Source: a virus. Taken from it: a DNA stretch of 46,791 nt. Where the stretch lies: the IMG/VR virus record IMGVR_UViG_3300027742_000003. One strand, written 5' to 3'. The notes beneath the pieces were generated by a model. The model saw nothing but the letters and a program-made list of their open reading frames with translations, was not told the origin of the DNA and did not search any database. Within the stretch, counting starts at the first letter, position 1; every line of letters begins with the position of its first letter. This document shows, one piece after another, positions 6,862-46,595 of this stretch. The position numbers and the translations under genes are program-made.

Positions 6862-7422
6862 CTAAGCAGCCTTATCATCAGGCAGTGCATTAAGTACATC
6901 ATCAATGCTAATACCAGCTTCAAAAATAGCTTGAACGATTTGTTCGTGTGTCATACCACCTTTTTCAGGGTCAGTAGCTGCAATGATAGCAGACTTAACA
7001 CGCTTGCCATAGTCAAACTCTTTAGCAACTGTAGCTTTTTTACCATAGTCAAACCATGTTGATTCAGGCGATAAGTTATACATAAGCTTAACGTCTTTCT
7101 TAGACGTCTTGGTTAGCTTGTTTTCTTTCTTGTTCCAAGCAACTGTATTACAGCACAGAACTTCCTTAACATACTTAACAATCTTAGTAAGGTTAATACC
7201 TTGAGTGGTTTCAGCCACTACTAGGATGTTAGACAACCATGTTAGGTTATTACTTACTTGCCCACCAGCAGACAGTTTAGCTGCCTCATGCACAGCTAGG
7301 ATAAGCAGCTGTTGAACTTGCTCGTTACGTTGACTGATAGAGCCAAACACAACTGAACATGCTTTAGTGAAGTCTTTAGTGGTTTTTACGTTTGCTTGTG
7401 AATACTTAGTTAGTGTAGCCAT
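6862..7422 (-). CDS. hypothetical protein (186 aa)
   Basis: ATG at 7422 with GGAGG 5 nt upstream. Confidence 0.75.
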   Translation of the reverse strand: MATLTKYSQANVKTTKDFTKACSVVFGSISQRNEQVQQLLILAVHEAAKLSAGGQVSNNLTWLSNILVVAETTQGINLTKIVKYVKEVLCCNTVAWNKKENKLTKTSKKDVKLMYNLSPESTWFDYGKKATVAKEFDYGKRVKSAIIAATDPEKGGMTHEQIVQAIFEAGISIDDVLNALPDDKAA

Positions 7423-7439
7423 GATGGCCTCCTATTATT

Positions 7440-8250
7440 TTCAATATTTAATTACGGTGTAGACGTACCTCAATACTCAGGTACATATTTAATAAGTGGA
7501 TATAAGAAAGGCTACTAAGCAGTGATGCCTAATAGCCTTGATTTATTCACTGAATTAACGTTAACCTGTGCCCTGCCTTGCTATCGGCTGGCCTTGACTA
7601 GGTAAGAATGAGACAGCAAAACTAAGGTAAGTATATGTGGCTTAGTTTCAAGTAGCTGTCGTATCATCCAAACAGGTTAACGGGATTTTCAATTTACCCT
7701 CACAACATAGTGTTGCCAAGGAATCTCCGAGCTGTCACACCATCCGAACTAATGTGGTTGCTCACGTTGGCTATTACCTGCCACCGCTTCGACTTGTCTT
7801 GTTAGGTGTGCATCTGTCCCAGTCAACCAGCATAAGCTATTAAGAGGGATTAAAGAGCGTATTAGTACACACCATTTAGGTTTAAGTCTAGTAGCTGATT
7901 TGTACCGCTACCGTACGTGGATAATGTTTCAATCCGTATGTATTGACTTTTTTCAGAAGTCGGGGCGAATGTTACCGATGTTTGTTCCGTTTGTCAACAA
8001 CTTTGTGAGCATGTGGGTTTATGGTACTTAGCCCTACCACCACTTAACAGTCCGTACACGCCGCTGTACTTGTTTTATAACCTAGCATCAAGGTTACTGT
8101 TTAGTGTGCTTATTGTTAACGTATTAGGACACTATCCTACACACGCCTTTATTCTTTTACCGTGTAGTTTTTCCAAACCACGAGTGAAGTATACGCAGGT
8201 AATTTATAAAAATCATCAGGCAAAAGTATTATATTTTAAATTAATTTTCT
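7440..8250. ncRNA. candidate large structured RNA or long structured leader (class and strand unresolved)
   Basis: No credible ORF. Nested perfect helices: 7559-7569/7672-7682 (11 bp) encloses 7612-7617/7655-7660 (6 bp) and 7619-7626/7641-7648 (8 bp). An extended hairpin at 7496-7550 has a tandem GA/AG internal loop. Further hairpins at 7465-7484, 7891-7911, 7945-7961, 8078-8096 and 8104-8143. Confidence 0.3.
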
Positions 8251-8310
8251 AATCGTTGGTTAAGTTGTTGTTTTATAAGGAATAATAAAGAGAGCTTTTT
8301 AATAAAAATA

Positions 8311-8574
8311 TTAAATTAATTTACATCTTATTGTTTTTATTAAAGATTTATTTGTATTAGTAGAAAGCCTATTAGGTATACATCTATATGCAATACACGC
8401 GTATATAACAGGTATACATAACATAGTCAACACCCCTAAGCATAATAGTACAAAGGGTAGTGTAAACAGTAGTATACATAGTAGCCCCAGTCGAAGACGT
8501 TTAGTTAGAGCGATTATCTTTATAATCAAGGGCTTATAAGCAGCATATTGGTGGTCATGGCCGTGAAAGGGCAC
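8311..8574 (-). CDS. doubtful ORF (87 aa, hydrophobic)
   Basis: GTG start with a weak SD. The body contains a near-consensus promoter and repeats, and the 3' end lies in about 80% A+T DNA. Confidence 0.3.
   Translation of the reverse strand: MPFHGHDHQYAAYKPLIIKIIALTKRLRLGLLCILLFTLPFVLLCLGVLTMLCIPVIYACIAYRCIPNRLSTNTNKSLIKTIRCKLI
8402..8430 (-). promoter_or_regulatory. sigma70-type promoter firing leftward into the ORF-free region
   Basis: Minus strand reads TTGACT (8430-8425) - 17 nt - TATATA (8407-8402). Confidence 0.5.
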
Positions 8575-8659
8575 TGCCCCTACATAGTAAGTCTACCTAA
8601 TCCTAACTAATTGGCCCACTACTTGCATAACATGCAGGGAACATGCCAACTCTTCCTAA

Positions 8660-8696
8660 GGGGGATTTGTAGGGGAGGGCAGGGGGGTTAGGGGGG
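8660..8696 (+). other. G-quadruplex-type tract (five G3-6 runs)
   Basis: GGGGGatttgtaGGGGaGGGcaGGGGGGttaGGGGGG. Confidence 0.7.
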
Positions 8697-8956
8697 TTGC
8701 CTTATTAGTGCATTACCCCTAAAAATTTTCTCGTAGTAATTCACCTAAATGGGTCTTACATAGTGATAGGTGCTTCTTAAAGGATTGACATAGTGTAAGC
8801 CCCTGTCCCTACGGGACGTTTAGTATCTCCTTAAGAGATAAGAGAACGCATTTAGGAGAAAAGAGAAAGAAGTAGTTATCTGTGGATGTGCCCTAGGTAG
8901 CTTGTAAAGGAGTTTGTAAAGGGAATGGATAATAACACAACTAAAGAGAGATAAGA

Positions 8957-9544
8957 ATGTCTGATATTCAATTAGATGAAATAAGAAGTGGGTATAACCT
9001 TAGTAAGATTAACTCAAACTTCGAAAAACTAGAAGAGGCAAATAATAATACGGTCTTACACAGGGATGGTGGTAACAACACCATGTTACAAGACATTGAC
9101 CTTAATTCAAATAAGATTATTAATGCTGGTGCCCCTGAAACTGACTACGACCTTGTAAGGGGCGTTGATGTAGTAGAGATAGCCAAGAAGATTAAGGGTG
9201 CTTCTTTTGTTACACAAACTGAGCAAGAGGTTCCAACAGTGGGTCTGTTTAATGGCGCTCGTTGGTACATCATAGATAATAATGAAACATTCTCTTATGT
9301 TATTGAGGATGGAGAGTCAGTGGGTCAATGGGTTCAAGAGGGTGTTTATGGAGATGATAAATCTGTAATACTGTCAAATACAATTGACTTAGATAATGTC
9401 TTAAGCGTGATTAATGCTATAGATAAGTTCACTGGAAAGCGTGTGATGAATACGGATACTAATAAGCAGGTATATGCTGGTGGCTCTTTGGCTATAGATG
9501 TTTGGTATGATGCTTTGGGTGCAGTTGAACACTCACCTAGTTAA
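8957..9544 (+). CDS. tail fibre / tailspike-adaptor-like protein
   Basis: N-terminal segment ...MLQDIDLNSNKIINAGAPETDYDLVRGVDV is typical of phage fibre N-termini. First gene of the plus arm. Confidence 0.6.
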   Translation: MSDIQLDEIRSGYNLSKINSNFEKLEEANNNTVLHRDGGNNTMLQDIDLNSNKIINAGAPETDYDLVRGVDVVEIAKKIKGASFVTQTEQEVPTVGLFNGARWYIIDNNETFSYVIEDGESVGQWVQEGVYGDDKSVILSNTIDLDNVLSVINAIDKFTGKRVMNTDTNKQVYAGGSLAIDVWYDALGAVEHSPS

Positions 9545-12221: not shown

Positions 12222-13823
12222 ATGGAAGATTGGCTACAGGAAGCTTATAAGAAGCTTGACAAGATGCCTAAGAAAGCCTTGGAGATTAGGGAAAGGGCTA
12301 TGGTTGACCTAGAGTTCTTTGCCCGCCTAGTTAATCCGGGGTACATGTATGGCTCAGTTCACAGGGAAATATTCAGGTGGATGCAGGAGTATGACCTATA
12401 CGGCAAGGGTGAAGAGCTTACAAGTAACAAACTTATAATGCTTCCTCGTGCCCATCTTAAGAGTCACATGGTTGCAACTTGGTGTGCTTGGATTATTACA
12501 CGCCACCCAGAAGTTACTATGCTATACGTATCAGCTACTGCTGAATTAGCAGAGACACAGCTATATGCAATCCAAAACATACTTGGTAGTAGCCTTTATC
12601 AAAGGTTCTTCCCAGAATACATCCATCCTCAAGAGGGTAAGCGCGACAAGTGGGCTTCTAAGAAGATTAACGTAGACCACCCTAAGCGTTCTAAAGAGGG
12701 TATACGGGATGCTACTGTGGCAACCGCAGGTCTAACAACTAACACTACAGGTTGGCACGCTGACATTGTTGTAGCGGACGATTTGGTTGTTCCAGAGAAT
12801 GCCTACACAGAAGATGGCCGAGAAGCAGTTTCTAAGAAAGCTTCACAGTTTACTTCTATACGTAACTCAGGTGGCTTCACAATGGCTTGTGGTACACGAT
12901 ACCACCCAACTGATATATACCACACTTGGAAGAATCAAGTATTCGACATATTCGATAGTGAGGGCATCAAGGTTGACCAAAAACCTGTTTGGGATATTAA
13001 GGAGTACGTTGTTGAAATAGATAACCTATTTACTTGGCCACGTACAATCAGGGAGGATGGCAAGGCTTTTGGCTTTGACATGCAGACCCTATCACGTATT
13101 AAGGCGGAGTATTCGGACAGGGTTCAGTTCTATGCACAGTATTATAATGACCCTAATGACCCCGGCTCAGAACGTATATCAAGAGACAAGTTTCAATACT
13201 ACAGCCCAAGGATGCTTAAGAAAGAGGGCAGCAGGTGGTTCTACAACGGTAAGAAGCTTAACGTATATGCAGCAGTGGATTTTGCATTCTCATTATCAAA
13301 AGCAGCCGACTTTACAGCAATCGTTGTAATAGGTGTTGACTCAGATGGCAACTACTACGTACTGGATATAGATAGGTTTAAGACTGACAAAACGTTAGAA
13401 TATTTTAAACACGTACTGGCCTTGCACACTAAATGGCGCTTCAACAAGCTCCGTGCTGAGGTGAGTGTTGCCCAAAAGGTAATCGTAAACAGTATTAAAG
13501 AATATGCCAAGAGAGAGGGTCTGAGCCTGTCTGTGGATGAATACAGGCCAACTCGTTCAGAGGGTTCTAAAGAAGAGCGGATAGAAGCCGCCCTAGGTCA
13601 CTTGTACGACAACTTACAAATGTGGCACTTAGAGGGTGGTTGGACAAGCATTCTCGAAGAGGAATTAGTATTAGCAAGACCATCTCACGATGATATTAAA
13701 GATGCGTTAGCGTCAGCAGTAACAATAGCAATCGCACCAGCTAACAAGAGTTCGTCTGGTATAAACGATTTCTTTACAAAAACTAGTAATACCCATCCAA
13801 GATTTGGTGGGGTTTCATTCTAA
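12222..13823 (+). CDS. terL: terminase large subunit
   Basis: 533 aa. Walker-B-like DIVVADDLV, a coupling motif in the ATPase domain, and a nuclease half with AAVDFAFS. Confidence 0.88.
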   Translation: MEDWLQEAYKKLDKMPKKALEIRERAMVDLEFFARLVNPGYMYGSVHREIFRWMQEYDLYGKGEELTSNKLIMLPRAHLKSHMVATWCAWIITRHPEVTMLYVSATAELAETQLYAIQNILGSSLYQRFFPEYIHPQEGKRDKWASKKINVDHPKRSKEGIRDATVATAGLTTNTTGWHADIVVADDLVVPENAYTEDGREAVSKKASQFTSIRNSGGFTMACGTRYHPTDIYHTWKNQVFDIFDSEGIKVDQKPVWDIKEYVVEIDNLFTWPRTIREDGKAFGFDMQTLSRIKAEYSDRVQFYAQYYNDPNDPGSERISRDKFQYYSPRMLKKEGSRWFYNGKKLNVYAAVDFAFSLSKAADFTAIVVIGVDSDGNYYVLDIDRFKTDKTLEYFKHVLALHTKWRFNKLRAEVSVAQKVIVNSIKEYAKREGLSLSVDEYRPTRSEGSKEERIEAALGHLYDNLQMWHLEGGWTSILEEELVLARPSHDDIKDALASAVTIAIAPANKSSSGINDFFTKTSNTHPRFGGVSF

Positions 13824-16102: not shown

Positions 16103-16180
16103 CTCCGTGTAGTCTCAGTCTGGTAGAGATGCCGCTTTGGAAGCGGGCTGTCGTAGGTTCAAATCCTGCCTCGGAGACCA
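16103..16180 (+). tRNA. tRNA-Pro (UGG)
   Basis: CTCCGTG/CTCGGAG acceptor (one T-T mismatch), D arm TCTC-AGTCTGGTA-GAGA, GCCGC-TTTGGAA-GCGGG, T arm GTAGG-TTCAAAT-CCTGC, A-CCA. Confidence 0.75.
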
Positions 16181-37659: not shown

Positions 37660-39529
37660 AACTCTCGCCAAATTGAACATCAATATCTAACTCCCGATTC
37701 ATTTTAAGTTTATCATTAACACGTTTGATTGCATCTTTAAATGCAGCTACACACTTCTCTTGCCTACCCTTTTTAATAAGGGCAATAACTTCGTCGTGCA
37801 TTTGACCTATAAGGGGGATACCCTTGGCCTTAAGTTCCATAACCCACATATCAAAACAGTATACACCACTACCCTGATTAAGCGTAGAGAACCTGTCCTT
37901 GTCACTACGTAAGCTATACCAAAATCCACTAATAGGGTTCTTAAGCCACTTCTGACCTGAGAACGTCCTAACAACCTGCTCCTCAGCAATCACCTTAACA
38001 GACCAATTACGCTGCCAGTATATCTCATTAAGAGCTTTCGCCTGAGATAGAGGCATCCCTGTTTCACGAGCCAATCCCTCTGGCCCTTGTCCATAAACAC
38101 CTCCGTAGTTAACTGGCTTAGCTGTCTTACGACCAGCTTTGATAATCTTCTTATCTTCGGAGTCTATGAAATCACCCGTCTTGTGTCTTGCTTCTTGCTC
38201 TGGTGTAAGATAGCCAGCTAGTACAGCAATATCAACATGAGGACAATACCCCTCTTCAAGCATGGTTTCAACATACTCAGGGTCATGCTCCCACATAAAG
38301 TGCTGCTTAGTTCTGTCTTCTAGTGCCGCCATATCAGAGCCACAAAGCTCATAACCATCTGGCGCTATTAAACAACCCCTTAGTTCCTCACCGTAAGGTT
38401 TATCAACTCCGGGAAGATTAACAACTACCCGATGCTTAAACCTTAGCGTATTGGTAAATCCTTGTATCCTAGCTTGTACAAATCCGTTGCTATCCATGTT
38501 TTCTAAGAAGCCACTAACTACATCTAGTCTGTGCTTAATAACACCAACTTCTTTAAGGAATATTACAGACGGCTCTACCTCACATAGCCTCTCAACGCTT
38601 GGTGTAAGTTCTGGCTCATTGTCATCATTCTTTCTACGTACTTGTGGTATTTGGCGTAAGTCGCCTGTATCTTTATTACGTTTGAATTTGAATGTACAAG
38701 GAACCCAACCCAACCCTGCTAACCACGCCTTAATCTGCGGGTCTGAGGCTGCATTTGGCTCATTATAAGAAGATATGTAAGACATTTCCTCAGTGTCTTC
38801 TGGTAAACCATGCTCCTTAAGAAGAGCAAACCATTTCTCACCTAATGCACTTAACGTACTATCTTGCTTATAACATTTCTTAGGTTTTGTCTTAGTGGTA
38901 TAGACAGCCACCTTAGGCATCACTTCCTCAAGCTTAGCAACAGCATTATCATGCAGCGCTGTTAACCTCTCTTTAAGTTCCTTTGCCTTAGGTACATTTA
39001 GCTTCCAACCTCTTGCCTCTTGCTCCCTAGCACACTGCATTTTAAACATGAGGTAATCAATCAACTTCCAAGCTTCTTCCTCAGTTTCATACATCCTAAG
39101 TAGTTTAGCCCATTGTTTTTCCCAAAGGGTGGTATTGATTTTCACGTCTTCTTTACAGCGGTGCTTGTACTCATCAGGAGATAACCCCTCCCAATCAGTA
39201 ACCTTTGGCTTAGGAACTCCGAAGTCAACACCGTAGTCTTCAAGCCCGTGTGTTAACCTTGTTGGTTCCAAATACCAAGACAGTGCTAAGGTATCTACTA
39301 GCTTTGCTTTTATCTTAATGCCAAGCATTTTCTCAACAGCAGGTATGTCAAACCTGTAAATGTTGTGCCCAACAAGAAGCGTAGCATTGCTAAAGTAGTT
39401 CCTCATCATGTCATAAGAACAGGTTGCTCCAAGTTTCTTGCCGTTGTCTACTGCTATACAGTGGATTTTAGTGTAATCAAAGCCATCAGTTTCAATATCA
39501 AATACATCACCTGACGCTTTTCTTTTCAT
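37643..39529 (-). CDS. DNA polymerase, family A, with a 3'-5' exonuclease domain
   Basis: VFDIETDG (Exo I), RKTAKPVNYGGVYGQG (motif B), GQMHDEVI (motif C). Confidence 0.93.
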   Translation of the reverse strand: MKRKASGDVFDIETDGFDYTKIHCIAVDNGKKLGATCSYDMMRNYFSNATLLVGHNIYRFDIPAVEKMLGIKIKAKLVDTLALSWYLEPTRLTHGLEDYGVDFGVPKPKVTDWEGLSPDEYKHRCKEDVKINTTLWEKQWAKLLRMYETEEEAWKLIDYLMFKMQCAREQEARGWKLNVPKAKELKERLTALHDNAVAKLEEVMPKVAVYTTKTKPKKCYKQDSTLSALGEKWFALLKEHGLPEDTEEMSYISSYNEPNAASDPQIKAWLAGLGWVPCTFKFKRNKDTGDLRQIPQVRRKNDDNEPELTPSVERLCEVEPSVIFLKEVGVIKHRLDVVSGFLENMDSNGFVQARIQGFTNTLRFKHRVVVNLPGVDKPYGEELRGCLIAPDGYELCGSDMAALEDRTKQHFMWEHDPEYVETMLEEGYCPHVDIAVLAGYLTPEQEARHKTGDFIDSEDKKIIKAGRKTAKPVNYGGVYGQGPEGLARETGMPLSQAKALNEIYWQRNWSVKVIAEEQVVRTFSGQKWLKNPISGFWYSLRSDKDRFSTLNQGSGVYCFDMWVMELKAKGIPLIGQMHDEVIALIKKGRQEKCVAAFKDAIKRVNDKLKMNRELDIDVQFGESYADIH

Positions 39530-40020
39530 TAATCCTCCTCATCAAACAGGTTAGACATTTCTGCCTTAAACACATTGACAATGTAGTTAATACGCTTACT
39601 GTTAGTGTCAAGTATGCACATTATCTCTCTTGGTTTGTATTGCTCAATGAAGTATAAGTGTAAGATTGTTCTATCATCACCAGACTTGTCAGCAATAGCT
39701 TCTTTAATCCTGTTAATAGTATCTTCACTTGTTTGAGACATCTCATTTGTCTCAGCTAACTCCTCATCAAACTCTACGTAAGTACCACAAGAACGTTCAT
39801 CACGCTTAAAACTTTTTAGCGTATTGTTCATGATAGTATTAAACCAAGCACCTAACTCTTGGCGCTCAGGGTCGAAGCTAGAAATATACCTGAGGGCACG
39901 CTCAAAGGACTCTTGTAAAATGTCCTCAGCGTTCTCTGGTGTACCAGCTCGATTAGCCAGCTTCTTTAGCAGCAGCTTACGCTCACTGACGTAGAAGTCT
40001 TCTATTTGTTGAAATGACAA
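39529..40020 (-). CDS. ECF-type sigma-70 family sigma factor
   Basis: Region 2: AEDILQESFERALRYISSFDPERQELGAWFNTIMNNTLKSFKRDE. Region 4: DRTILHLYFIEQYKPREIMCILDTNSKRINYIV. TTG start 6 nt after GAGGAG. TAATG overlap with the polymerase. Confidence 0.85.
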   Translation of the reverse strand: MSFQQIEDFYVSERKLLLKKLANRAGTPENAEDILQESFERALRYISSFDPERQELGAWFNTIMNNTLKSFKRDERSCGTYVEFDEELAETNEMSQTSEDTINRIKEAIADKSGDDRTILHLYFIEQYKPREIMCILDTNSKRINYIVNVFKAEMSNLFDEED

Positions 40021-43592: not shown

Positions 43593-43988
43593 TCACTCTT
43601 TGGTTTTGTACTTGAACCAATCCCCATCCTTGACAGGCATTGTCTTATCTTCGTCGATATGGTATATCCAAGCACGAACCGTCTCACCACTATCATCAAG
43701 TACAACATCCACCTGACTCCTATTATAAAAAGTTGGGTAGCCCTCTAAGCCATCAAGAGGCCCTGTAAGACCTTGCTCATCAGTGCGGTACACTTCTACT
43801 ACTAAGGGTGTTTCATGGCTGCTGTGTTCCAATGAGACGCTAGGAAACGCACCTAAGGAGTACATGTTGTAGTTGTTTACAGTTTTACCTGTATCAACCA
43901 GCTCAGCATTAGCAAGACCAATAACATGGTGATTACCTAAGCCCTGTCTTAAGCTACCGTACACAGCTACAAGAATATCTTTATCCAC
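43593..43988 (-). CDS. gamma-glutamyl cyclotransferase-like (AIG2/GGCT fold) protein
   Basis: N-terminal VAVYGSLRQGLGNHHVI signature. Confidence 0.7.
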   Translation of the reverse strand: MDKDILVAVYGSLRQGLGNHHVIGLANAELVDTGKTVNNYNMYSLGAFPSVSLEHSSHETPLVVEVYRTDEQGLTGPLDGLEGYPTFYNRSQVDVVLDDSGETVRAWIYHIDEDKTMPVKDGDWFKYKTKE

Positions 43989-44473
43989 TACTTCTCTCCT
44001 AGGGGCTTACAATAAACAGTTTCATAATTAAACAAACCTAATTGGTCTGCTAGCTTAGCATGATTAACAGCGTTCTTAAACGTCACCATCATATGAGAAG
44101 CGCCACGCTTAGTAACATACTCCTCAGCCTTGCTTAATAATGTACGACCAACGCCAGTACCACGGGCGCTTTGAACTACGTAGATAGTGTCCGTAAGGGC
44201 AGTAAGCTCCCCAGTGTGCATTGATGGGCACAAGAACATTGACACATAGCCAAGTATGTCTTCTTGATTACCCTCTTCATCATATTGAATAGCAAGCAAC
44301 CAGAAGTGCATACGATTATCGTCTGCTGCCTTATAAGATTGCCACTGAACATTAAGCTCAGAAGTTTTACGTCTATCGTCTACCTCATCCCACTGATTAA
44401 GAAGAAGTTCATTAAAGCGTGCATTCTTCTCAAGCTCAGATGACTCAACAAATTGATATTTTAAATTACTCAT
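43988..44473 (-). CDS. GNAT-family N-acetyltransferase
   Basis: VVQSARGTGVGRTLLSKAEEYVTKRG (motif A, Q/RxxGxG). Confidence 0.75.
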   Translation of the reverse strand: MSNLKYQFVESSELEKNARFNELLLNQWDEVDDRRKTSELNVQWQSYKAADDNRMHFWLLAIQYDEEGNQEDILGYVSMFLCPSMHTGELTALTDTIYVVQSARGTGVGRTLLSKAEEYVTKRGASHMMVTFKNAVNHAKLADQLGLFNYETVYCKPLGEK

Positions 44474-44930
44474 TACGGAGTTCCTTAAGTTGACCTTGTG
44501 CTTCTTTAAGCTGTTCTTCAAGCTTGTTAACAAGGCACTCTAACTTGTCTTCTTTAGGACAAGGTTCTGGTTTAATACGGTATTCAAAATCTTTATCAAA
44601 TGTAGGCAACATCGTTACCCCCTTATCGTGACAATTTTTAACTGTCAGCCACTTCCCTATAGAGTCTTTAACCTGAATAACCTTACCTTGCATCCAAGCA
44701 ATAACAATATCGTAATGCTTGTAGTAGTTTGAGGTGTCTTCCTCTACAAGAGAAAACCTTTCTTTTGACCAATTATAGTGTAATCCCGACAGCTTCATGT
44801 TGAGGGTTCCCACTATATCAACAACAGTAAACACCTCCCCAGACATAAACCGTCTAGCTATATCTGGCTCAACACAGCTCAAATCCATATCTGTTCTTCG
44901 AACCTTATCACCAACTTTAAAATCACTCAT
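44466..44930 (-). CDS. hypothetical protein (154 aa) inside the ligase operon
   Basis: ATG 6 nt after GGAG, overlapping the ATP-grasp stop. Confidence 0.6.
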   Translation of the reverse strand: MSDFKVGDKVRRTDMDLSCVEPDIARRFMSGEVFTVVDIVGTLNMKLSGLHYNWSKERFSLVEEDTSNYYKHYDIVIAWMQGKVIQVKDSIGKWLTVKNCHDKGVTMLPTFDKDFEYRIKPEPCPKEDKLECLVNKLEEQLKEAQGQLKELRNE

Positions 44931-45720
44931 CACCATCTCCAAACATTGTTTTAAAGCGCTCAGCATAGCCAGTTAAGGTAGAGCCTGTTAAGCCGGGTGC
45001 TGTATTAATTTCCAATACAATTGCATACTCATTGTGCTCGTTATAGATGATGTCAACAGCACCAAAGTCAAGGTTAATAGCTTGAACAGCACGTACTGCT
45101 TGCTCTAACACTTGGTGTGGTGGCTCAACACCCTCATTACGAGCATAGATAAAGCCGTTGTCATGGTTACGTACAAGCCAATTGACCTGCTCATTTGGAA
45201 CACTACGGTCACGAGCCTTACGCTGTACATCCACAACTTCACCATTAAGTACGTGAATACGCCATTCAGACTTCTTCTTAACATACATTACGTACAGTGG
45301 ACAATCTTCTAAAACATCTTCACCAGTTTTAATCTTAATACCAGCGCCAGAGTGCCCGCTTAATTCATGACGTTCAACAACAGTACGCCCTAAGTACAAC
45401 CAACGTTGAGCTTCTCGCTTATCTTTAGTGTGCTGAGGAACCGCTACAGCTTCATCGTGACCGCAATAATTGTTGTATTCTAAAATACTGTCAAAGAATG
45501 CCAGCTTATTAGCTGCAACAGCAACGGCACTAGGCGTATTAATAACGCGACAACTATTAACTTCATCAGGTAGCTTAGTACAACCCCAATTAATAACCGT
45601 CTTTTCTTCATCCCCTGCAAAGCGGCTAGCAGAGCGTCTAATACGTTTTGCATCTAACTCCTCCGATAAAGCCTTAACAGACTTACTTCCAGCTTTGTAT
45701 GGATATATAAATAAAGACAT
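44923..45720 (-). CDS. ATP-grasp ligase (RimK-like, phage type)
   Basis: 265 aa with ...HSGAGIKI..., WRIHVLNGEVV and AIVLEINTAPGL. Confidence 0.8.
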   Translation of the reverse strand: MSLFIYPYKAGSKSVKALSEELDAKRIRRSASRFAGDEEKTVINWGCTKLPDEVNSCRVINTPSAVAVAANKLAFFDSILEYNNYCGHDEAVAVPQHTKDKREAQRWLYLGRTVVERHELSGHSGAGIKIKTGEDVLEDCPLYVMYVKKKSEWRIHVLNGEVVDVQRKARDRSVPNEQVNWLVRNHDNGFIYARNEGVEPPHQVLEQAVRAVQAINLDFGAVDIIYNEHNEYAIVLEINTAPGLTGSTLTGYAERFKTMFGDGDE

Positions 45721-46595
45721 TAGAAATCCTCCATAGGCTCATCAGGCCATTCAATATTAGATGGGAAAGATAACCCACCAATAACTTGTTCATTAAAGCT
45801 GTTCCAATCAACAGCGTGTGCAATAGGTAGTGCATACTCAAGACCAACCTCAAGCTCTGCAACTATATTAACATCATTAAGAAGTTCACCAGCACAATCA
45901 CCAAGCATCTTGTAAACAAAAGACTCAGGAGCTTCCAGTGCCATACTTACTACATCAAGTGGTGACTCAAACGTTTGTGCTTGTTCACGCATGTTGTACA
46001 ACACATTACACCACACCTTAAGAACTTCAAAGTCTGCTGTGCTTCGCATTGCTCGGTACTCAAGAGAGCCATACTTACTCAAAGAGTTTAGGTTTAAGGC
46101 TGAATAACGTATCATACTAGAGGCAAGTGGTCTTAGACTACCCTTTACTATAGACTCTTCAAGAACTTTTGCTTGGTAGTCTGCATCACAAACACGTAAG
46201 CAGAATAGGTTGCCCTCTCTATAAGCCCCACAATAACGTGTTAAGATTGTTTCAAGCAAGTATGTAGACAAGATTAAGTTATACATATGCACAACGTTAA
46301 GCTCTTGAACATTAACATGAACATGCACACCTGCTCTTGGTGTCTCGTAGTAAGCAGAGTTTGACAAAGCTTCCTTAAGGTTGTTTAAGCAAGTGACTGT
46401 CTCATCAAGTGAGCGTGGTTCTCGCATAACATACTCATTAGACTCACCTCTAAGACTGTGGTCAATCTCAGTACGCCAATCATCATTATCAAAGTTTGGC
46501 AGGTTCTCACCCTCAACCTCTACCTCTACACCTAATGCACCAGCCTTAAGCTTGTGGTTGGGCATGTTTAGTTTCTGTGCCACCGTTGGTATCAT
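45720..46595 (-). CDS. Amidoligase_2-like carboxylate-amine ligase (GCS2 / glutamine-synthetase-like fold)
   Basis: GVEVEVEG..., RGESNEYV, AGVHVHVN, GSLEYRAM. Confidence 0.75.
   Translation of the reverse strand: MIPTVAQKLNMPNHKLKAGALGVEVEVEGENLPNFDNDDWRTEIDHSLRGESNEYVMREPRSLDETVTCLNNLKEALSNSAYYETPRAGVHVHVNVQELNVVHMYNLILSTYLLETILTRYCGAYREGNLFCLRVCDADYQAKVLEESIVKGSLRPLASSMIRYSALNLNSLSKYGSLEYRAMRSTADFEVLKVWCNVLYNMREQAQTFESPLDVVSMALEAPESFVYKMLGDCAGELLNDVNIVAELEVGLEYALPIAHAVDWNSFNEQVIGGLSFPSNIEWPDEPMEDF

Follow-up and report, generated by a model that had tools for sequence, protein, structure and literature searches.

To our knowledge, few bacterial or phage RNAs both exceed 400 nt and adopt a complex conserved fold, and nearly all of these that have been studied are ribozymes, ribonucleoprotein cores or unusual RNA-only assemblies. 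The subject of this work is a gene-free stretch in the IMG/VR virus record IMGVR_UViG_3300027742_000003, a sequence of 46,791 nt (hereafter the window) which, judged by its sequence, is a roughly complete genome of a Zobellviridae-like podophage. Positions 7495-7962 very probably specify, on the minus strand, a structured non-coding RNA about 468 nt long, in which 17 helices, one pseudoknot among them, are conserved. The best overall explanation of the locus, which we consider likely, is a multi-domain RNA gene of about 470 nt at the early end of a linear genome.

Several phage systems resemble this locus in part. Phage T7 is said, after Dunn and Studier in 1983, to carry its host promoters A1-A3 in tandem near the entering end of the genome and, ahead of its first early gene, the RNase III site R0.3. 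The T7 early leader and the present locus have in common a linear genome with short direct terminal repeats, about 0.7-1 kb of non-coding DNA at the early-gene end, strong inward-facing host sigma70 promoters (three in tandem in several of the relatives studied here) and a two-part hairpin with an internal loop directly before the first early open reading frame (ORF). However, the leader is here the most conserved sequence of the region, and the T7 leader is not known to us as a conserved, covarying, multi-domain RNA. Moreover, RNase III cleavage is only inferred here, and the phage lacks an RNA polymerase and, like phiEco32, encodes a sigma factor.

The GOLLD and ROOL RNAs are likewise phage-borne, longer than 400 nt, multi-helical, of pseudoknot-level complexity and marked by highly conserved unpaired nucleotides. 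The RNA described here is smaller than both, matches their Rfam models neither in sequence nor in structure, occurs in marine podophages and not in Lactobacillales, rumen or lake sequences, and is fixed at the start of an early operon. The pRNA of phi29 is also encoded beside one end of a linear podophage genome and has an early host-type promoter; in contrast, it is 174 nt long and belongs to a terminase-less, protein-primed packaging motor, whereas the present phage has a conventional large terminase (12222-13823) and direct terminal repeats, and no relation in sequence or structure was found between the two RNAs. Finally, the put elements of HK022 and the nut elements of lambda are RNA elements situated directly after early promoters, which act on the transcribing host polymerase, but they measure about 70 nt or less, and the boxA-like motif of the present RNA is not conserved in its family.

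Evidence for a structured RNA on the minus strand

Relatives of the region were collected through the flanking protein of 186 aa, 23 homologues of which (94-45% identity) defined the loci L011-L033. A profile of the region (nhmmer) finds the element in L011-L023 and in IMG/VR and TARA contigs with E = 1e-54 to 1e-142; in all of them it has the same orientation and lies directly upstream of the early gene. For the RNA, relatives give E = 1e-112 to 1e-142. An RNAalifold consensus of eight sequences contains 115 pairs, 43 of them with compensatory double changes. The structure that was tested comprises 112 pairs in 17 helices, the pseudoknot having been put in by inspection. Standard pairs fill 94.0% of its cells, against 84.4 ± 0.6% after shuffling and 33-38% when the partners are slid. 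Double changes are found at 42 of the 112 pairs (20.9 ± 2.6 in shuffles, 0/500 as high; 7-14 when slid), and the covariation score is 0.342, compared with 0.157 for the shuffles and 0.05-0.07 for the slid controls. For the core domain (domain 1), ten sequences aligned with a covariance model (CM) have double changes at 28/44 pairs, against 8.1 ± 2.1 in shuffles. Domain 1 helices that had been invariant also covary once L031 and L026 enter the alignment; L031 is too divergent for MAFFT and was placed by model-based alignment.

The minus strand from 7962 to 7490 folds at -142.5 kcal/mol, compared with -114.7 ± 6.0 for shuffled sequences (z = -4.64; 0/100 as good). Over 7965-7423, z reaches -4.97 on the minus strand and only -1.84 on the plus strand. 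The segment 7998-8300 folds no better than its shuffles (z = -0.31). Consequently, the unusual structure corresponds to about 7495-7962, roughly half of the interval 7423-8310 that a reading of the sequence alone (the original prediction) had assigned to a large structured RNA or leader of an open class; the part from 8000 to 8310 does not share it. The nature of the element was, however, correctly foreseen: the covariation check on homologous phage regions that had been proposed came out in favour of an RNA, as did the strand-specific excess of G·U pairs, the sigma70 promoter upstream and the lack of an ORF.

In the cells of the structure, G·U combinations number 113 and A·C combinations 17, several of the G·U pairs being invariant, and reading the structure on the minus strand gives 94.0% paired cells, as opposed to 83.2% for the plus strand. 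The excess of G·U over A·C indicates that it is the minus strand which forms the RNA, in the same orientation as the early genes. No protein-coding signal accompanies the conservation: each of the six frames has at least four stops in 8/8 homologues, no frame being consistently open, and the variable columns are spread evenly over the codon phases (29/23/26), without 3-periodicity.

Positions 7763-7935 are about 93% identical between the window and another UViG contig (the UViG relative), while the adjacent coding DNA is about 75% identical. Conservation starts just past a promoter and ends at the foot of a long hairpin. Locus L014 is 96% identical through the element and unrelated directly downstream, and L031 has two small ORFs between the element and its gene for a protein of 189 aa. 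These sharp edges and changing contexts mark the element as a discrete module of about 450-470 nt.

Architecture of the RNA

All the elements of the RNA described in this section are on the minus strand and are given from 5' to 3'. Between the promoter and the conserved core lies a 5' hairpin, GACUUCUGAAAAAAGUC (7945-7961), seen in the alignments and in the minimum free energy fold; it had been predicted and is real, but it is lineage-specific, being present only in the window and L020. It is followed, within 7890-7935, by hairpin P1 (7935-7932/7922-7919), in which GGAU/AUCC becomes AGGU/ACCU, and by an H-type pseudoknot (7916-7913/7905-7902 and 7912-7907/7895-7890). One pseudoknot stem changes from GUAC/GUAC to GAGC/GCUC and the second from GGUAGC/GCUACU to GGUAAC/GUUACU; the predicted hairpin 7891-7911 is part of the consensus structure.

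Domain 1 (7764-7888) is the best conserved block of the RNA. A long-range helix (7888-7884/7795-7791) surrounds a nested stack (7873-7805) and is followed by a hairpin (7787-7764); with L031 and L026 included, 4/5 pairs of this long-range helix covary. The joining strands ACUAGACUUAAACCUAAAUGGU and CACCUAACAAGACAAGUCGAA are invariant. Domain 2 (7684-7756) consists of a variable hairpin (7756-7750/7742-7736) and of the helices 7730-7727/7692-7689 and 7721-7712/7706-7697, and ends in the 16-mer GGUAAAUUGAAAAUCC (7699-7684), which is invariant in 8/8 sequences. Double changes occur at 5/7 pairs of helix 10 and 4/9 pairs of helix 12 in this domain, directly 5' of which relatives carry insertions of 27-40 nt.

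Domain 3 (7559-7682) is closed by a perfect helix of 11 bp (7682-7672/7569-7559) and contains the inner helices 7649-7643/7624-7618 and 7592-7587/7576-7570. In the closing helix 7/11 pairs have compensatory changes, a single position showing as many as four pair types, and the comparison of the window with the UViG relative alone reveals five double changes in this helix. This helix had been predicted exactly, and the inner 8-bp helix proposed at 7619-7626/7641-7648 is also present in the consensus. The inner part of domain 3 is shorter by 17-24 nt in L015, L018 and L020.

A short sequence of the RNA has a counterpart elsewhere in the gap. The invariant unpaired ACCUAAAUGG (7870-7879, minus strand) recurs as ACCTAAATGG at 8743-8752 on the plus strand, 30 nt past the terminal repeat described below and directly before an ACATAGT heptamer; the same arrangement is found in L020 and L018. 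The shared ACCUAAAUGG/ACCTAAATGG could be a protein-binding site common to the early RNA and a late leader, or an inverted DNA repeat. No long complementarity was found between the RNA and the rest of the gap; a 9-10-mer, ACCTAAATGG, is common to both.

Promoter and 5' end

A sigma70-type early promoter is located at 7997-7969 on the minus strand, with the -35 hexamer TTGACA (7997-7992), a spacer of 17 nt and the -10 hexamer TAACAT (7974-7969); it scored 10/12 in the promoter scan. It lies 33 nt upstream of the first conserved hairpin, and its position would place the transcription start at about 7962. The UViG relative and L015 share these hexamers and their spacing but differ in the sequence of the spacer. 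In 8/9 homologues examined, TTGACA, a spacer of 17-18 nt and a TAnnnT -10 hexamer are found directly upstream of the RNA; L018 has only a distant promoter, 315 nt upstream. The promoter is a perfect TTGACA-17-TATAAT in L014, L012, L019 and L023, its -10 hexamer ending 14-16 nt before the first RNA hairpin; further upstream, at distances of about 100 and 240 nt, two additional TTGACA promoters are present in L014, L012, L019 and L015.

The idea of a promoter firing into the region from the minus strand was right, although the relevant one is 7997-7969 and not the TTGACT-17-TATATA that had been proposed at 8430-8402. The latter sequence exists; it is kept in L012 and L020, has a changed -10 hexamer in L019 and a changed -35 hexamer in the UViG relative, and is absent from the promoter scan list because its -10 hexamer has no T at position 6.

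Upstream of the RNA promoter, a small conserved element (8011-8127, minus strand) is shared only by the window, L012, L019 and L020 (nhmmer E = 1e-34 to 1e-37). It holds the hairpin GUACA-GCGGCG-UGUAC, the arms of which covary to GCUAG/CUAGC and GCACU/AGUGC, and the copies in L012 and L019 each come with a TTGACA-17-TATCAT promoter of their own. The hairpin predicted at 8078-8096 is thus present, but as part of this separate element.

The 3' hairpin

A two-part hairpin (7495-7551, minus strand) forms the 3' end of the conserved element. Its lower stem has 8 bp (7551-7544/7502-7495) and its upper stem 13 bp (7539-7527/7520-7508), and the U-rich UUUCUUAUAUCC follows and overlaps it. In the upper stem 100% of the cells are paired, with double changes at 5/13 pairs and three conserved G·U pairs. 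The hairpin had been predicted at 7496-7550 and is part of the consensus, the portion 7508-7539 being as described; the internal loop, however, is asymmetric (4/5) and not symmetric. A tandem sheared G-A geometry had been suggested for this loop on condition that the RNA was the plus strand, and does not apply to a minus-strand RNA. Where the plus strand would have C·A mismatches in the 7508-7539 stem, the minus strand has G·U pairs.

Two properties of this hairpin bear on its function. In a terminator scan of the minus strand it was scored as terminator-like, with a stem of 14 pairs and the tail UCUUAUAUCC, a moderate U-tract which is invariant in eight homologues. L026 and L031 retain a two-part hairpin of different sequence, which in L031 has no U-tract. 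The hairpin also has the layout of a T7-type RNase III signal: two coaxial stems, together about 20 bp, on either side of an asymmetric internal loop, located here between the RNA and the first ORF. In such signals, five of which are present in the T7 early precursor, internal loops direct RNase III to single-strand cleavage and stabilizing 3' hairpins remain (PMC3867540). The 3' hairpin could therefore be an intrinsic, leaky terminator, a T7-type RNase III processing signal, or both, and by analogy cleavage would take place at the 4/5 loop.

Distribution

The RNA appears to be restricted to one marine subclade known from metagenomic contigs only. A blastn search with 7300-9000 against 50,697 phage records returned only a 73-nt stretch of the G-rich terminal-repeat element described below and no homologue of the RNA. 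Exact 21- to 24-mer scans of viral, metagenome and genome contig collections found only one UViG/TARA contig type, and the same exact-pattern scans had no match in 185,579 bacterial and archaeal genomes. CMs covering domain 1, built in three rounds, picked up two homologues of greater divergence, both located and oriented as expected: L031/L032, whose score rose from 26 bits to 62 bits when the second model was used, and L026/L028, at 18 bits (E about 0.01). They found nothing significant in the PA11-like Pseudomonas phages, CW02, two oyster-metagenome Zobellviridae, L024, L025 and L029. Consequently, the RNA class is either confined to one subclade or has diverged past detection. As an observation on the contigs themselves, the first 17 nt of the L028, L031 and L027 contigs are GTTTCCCAGTCACGATC, which to us resembles a random-amplification primer and may presumably be adaptor contamination at contig ends.

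Genome organization and the gene-free gap

The large terminase (12222-13823) shares about 77% identity with its counterparts in the PA11-like Pseudomonas phages, the Vibrio PS32B phages and Salinivibrio phage CW02, all Zobellviridae. The genome has two diverging arms. The early and replication arm (minus strand, 23 kb) runs leftward from 7422 and wraps round the window ends; it encodes a family A DNA polymerase, a primase-helicase, an exonuclease, a phage sigma factor and phiEco32-like amidoligase genes. The structural arm (plus strand) occupies 8957-31189. The gap between them (7423-8956, 1534 nt) contains only short mechanical ORFs, and every related contig recovered has an equivalent gap of 1.4-1.75 kb without called genes, as do CW02 and O4. 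The stretch without ORFs that drew attention to 7423-8310 is therefore genuine and larger than was first described.

The first early gene (6862-7422, minus strand, ATG at 7422) encodes the protein of 186 aa (phrog_14737). This protein has no Pfam match, its confident AlphaFold2 model (pLDDT 87.8) matches no fold in the PDB, and its relatives are uncharacterised phage proteins only, one of them from Vibrio phage ICP2. Its leader (7428-7484, minus strand) comprises a hairpin (7484-7465) and the ribosome-binding site AGGAGG (7433-7428); the hairpin is kept in the UViG relative with one double and one single change, and the segment is not conserved in L014 or L012.

Between the genes for the primase-helicase and the DNA polymerase is that of the phage sigma factor (39529-40020, minus strand; Pfam Sigma70_r2, E = 6.5e-12), the presence of which implies a phiEco32-like switch from host sigma70 to the phage sigma factor. 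Regions 465-2599 and 43988-46595 (minus strand) carry genes for a phiEco32-like COOH-NH2 ligase, an amidoligase, an ATP-grasp protein, a glutamine amidotransferase and a GNAT acetyltransferase, which we take to be a peptide or metabolite modification module of the kind known from phiEco32-type phages. Two tRNA genes match Rfam RF00005: 4239-4312 (minus strand, 69.8 bits) and 16103-16177 (plus strand, 44.5 bits), the latter between the portal gene and the downstream head genes. Members of the family have been reported to be without their own RNA polymerase and possibly to use phiEco32-like sigma switching; they have short direct terminal repeats, of 74-173 bp across reports, in the ORF-free region between modules (PMC9960094, PMC6775973).

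In the window, the homologue of the terminal repeat is located at 8641-8712 and has the G-rich core GGGGGGTTAGGGGGG. It aligns with the 74-bp repeat of Pseudomonas phage O4, whose record opens and closes with the same 74 bp. Both the TC6 record and the IME180 record begin within the G-rich element, Logan contig L012 ends at window position 8711, and the core GGGGGTTAGGGGG recurs in distant relatives. Probably, 8641-8712 is the physical genome end, its repeat collapsed to one copy in the assembly. The original prediction had named a physical genome end as an alternative for 7423-8310; this is true of the same gap but not of that interval, the repeat lying about 330 nt outside it. By analogy with T7, the right end (about 8712) would be the first to enter the cell, and the RNA promoter is about 0.72 kb from it.

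The G-rich element (GGGGGATTTGTAGGGGAGGGCAGGGGGGTTAGGGGGG...) is the only part of the gap conserved at the DNA level with the Pseudomonas and Salinivibrio phages, and looks telomere-like or quadruplex-prone. A telomerase-like reading, in which CCUAA of the RNA would face the repeat core GGGTTAGGG, was set aside as speculation without support; the 20 proteins scanned include no reverse transcriptase.

Two further elements of the gap were noted. The heptamer ACATAGT occurs eight times in the window; five of these copies, all of them plus-strand, lie within 374 nt (8421, 8476, 8582, 8758 and 8788). This cluster (8421-8794) flanks the terminal-repeat homologue, and its positions are conserved in the UViG relative. 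Phage T7 has heptamer arrays beside its terminal repeats. The ACATAGT copies may be phage-sigma promoters for the late plus-strand operon or T7-like repeat arrays. An AT-rich block of about 60 nt (8296-8360) shows about 98% identity among the window, L012, L020 and the UViG relative, with both flanks variable; possibilities include an unwinding element, an UP-like element and a genome-entry signal.

Proposed mechanism and alternative explanations

The following sequence of events would account for these observations. The genome end at about 8712 would enter the cell, and host sigma70 polymerase would initiate at the TTGACA-type promoter, about 0.72 kb from the entering end. The first 470 nt or so of the transcript would then adopt the 17 helices, from the 5' hairpin and pseudoknot through the core domain to the domain closed by the 11-bp helix. 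Hairpin 7551-7495 would make the 3' end, by partial intrinsic termination or by an RNase III-type cut in the 4/5 loop, so that a discrete, hairpin-protected RNA would be released while read-through transcripts would go on into the early genes. The RNA is probably the first product of infection, and its release as a discrete molecule seems to us rather probable.

Once released, the RNA would in our view act as a protein-binding scaffold in early infection, for host takeover or anti-defence, more probably than as a passive leader. A role in trans is suggested tentatively. That the invariant unpaired segments are long, that a pseudoknot is present and that the RNA stays the same while its downstream context changes all speak for a specific molecular partner. 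Even more cautiously, we put forward the fuller proposal of a previously undescribed class of ornate phage RNA of about 470 nt, which the host polymerase would make from the entering end before any phage protein and which would act in trans. Possible functions in that case include neutralizing a host defence, sequestering or reprogramming a host protein such as the sigma70 polymerase before the phage sigma factor takes over, and nucleating an RNA-protein or RNA-only assembly.

Several points weigh against the interpretation as a discrete RNA gene. The CM-derived alignments (A7 and A9) were fitted to the model and are thus biased towards its structure. The roughly ten distinct sequences come from one clade of uncultivated marine phages, so that some of the covariation is shared ancestry and the counts of double changes are not independent events, although the slid controls retain the same relatedness yet stay far lower. 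The U-tract of the 3' hairpin is only moderate and is absent in L031; termination may therefore be weak or absent. No convincing promoter is seen between the 3' hairpin and the first gene, which implies that read-through or processing must occur and that termination cannot be complete. Finally, in every case the RNA points the same way as the early operon and immediately precedes it, an arrangement that a purely cis-acting leader fits equally well.

Such a leader, the fold of which would shield about 470 untranslated nt from Rho and RNases and would perhaps modify the elongating host polymerase, as in put- or nut-like processive antitermination, for passage through the hairpin and along the 23-kb minus arm, is the best of the alternatives, though we regard it as rather unlikely. 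The fixed place of the RNA ahead of the early operon favours a role in cis: the element always lies, in one orientation, between the early promoter or promoters and the first early ORF, which has no independent promoter of its own, and a terminator-like hairpin stands between the RNA and the genes of a phage that relies on the host polymerase and a phage sigma factor. A boxA-like string, CGCUCUUUAAUCC (7859-7847), would also suit antitermination, the boxA consensus being GCUCUUUAACAA-like. However, this string reads GCUCUUUAA in the window, L014, L012, L020 and L019, GUUCUUUAA in L015 and L018 and GUUCUUUCG in L023, and is absent from L031 and L026. Nus-type antitermination is thus unsupported, and a BoxA/Nus-factor mechanism was dropped since the motif, not kept in L023, L031 and L026, is not conserved across the family. 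Moreover, put and nut elements do not exceed about 70 nt, compared with 470 nt here; the long invariant unpaired segments and the pseudoknot point to a specific ligand or protein over generic shielding; and the RNA stays constant while the downstream sequence, even its gene content, varies (L014, L031).

It is very unlikely that the conservation reflects a function of the genome end at the DNA level, such as an origin, a packaging or concatemer-processing signal, or a control of stepwise ejection. The distance from the region to the inferred physical end is indeed 0.75-1.2 kb, the cumulative GC skew reaches its minimum there, and the same gap has the conserved AT-rich block and the clustered heptamers. 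Nevertheless, pairing is preserved by compensatory changes in 17 helices, long-range ones included; the imbalance of G·U over A·C is strand-specific, as an RNA predicts; a consensus promoter stands exactly at the 5' edge of the RNA; and the terminal repeat, the AT-rich block and the heptamers are all outside 7495-7962. A replication origin had been offered as another alternative for 7423-8310, but the AT-rich block overlaps the right edge of that interval by only about 15 nt, the heptamers are wholly outside it, and no tandem or iteron-like repeat family was found within it.

Membership, in divergent form, of a known class (GOLLD, ROOL, HEARO, OLE, 6S, tmRNA, RNase P, group I/II intron) is highly improbable, even though the size is in a comparable range and large ornate RNAs are known to be phage-associated (PMC12286853). 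A cmscan of the whole window against all 4227 families of Rfam 15 returned, at the gathering score, the two tRNAs only; the GOLLD or ROOL affiliation that had been considered thus found no match. With E up to 10, the interval 7300-9100 gave six chance-level matches (three small nucleolar RNA families, a microRNA precursor, a long non-coding RNA exon and a plant-virus pseudoknot), the best of which reached 24 bits against a gathering score of 45. The lack of any RNA homologue in the blastn search of phage records agrees with this, and, by these comparisons, the RNA is a member of no catalogued family. That the region hides a small ORF, or is a protein-coding gene that has decayed or escaped recognition, can practically be dismissed, since the stops in all frames of all eight homologues, the even spread of variable columns over codon phases and the absence of a called gene in any contig outweigh the fact that some indels between relatives, e.g. 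of 24 and 27 nt, are multiples of three.

Implications for the Zobellviridae

The RNA combines well-supported covariation with a sharply defined position, behind a consensus host promoter at the entering end and in front of every early gene, and its phages belong to a family which lacks its own polymerase and changes from one sigma factor to another. Together, these properties make it possible to ask experimentally whether an RNA, and not a protein like Ocr of T7, is the first weapon or control device of the infecting phage. They also correct the annotation: the seemingly empty 1.5 kb of this genome would hold an RNA gene, an early promoter, candidate late promoters and a terminal repeat. Many Zobellviridae-type genomes have a similar 'empty' 1.5 kb between their two gene arms.

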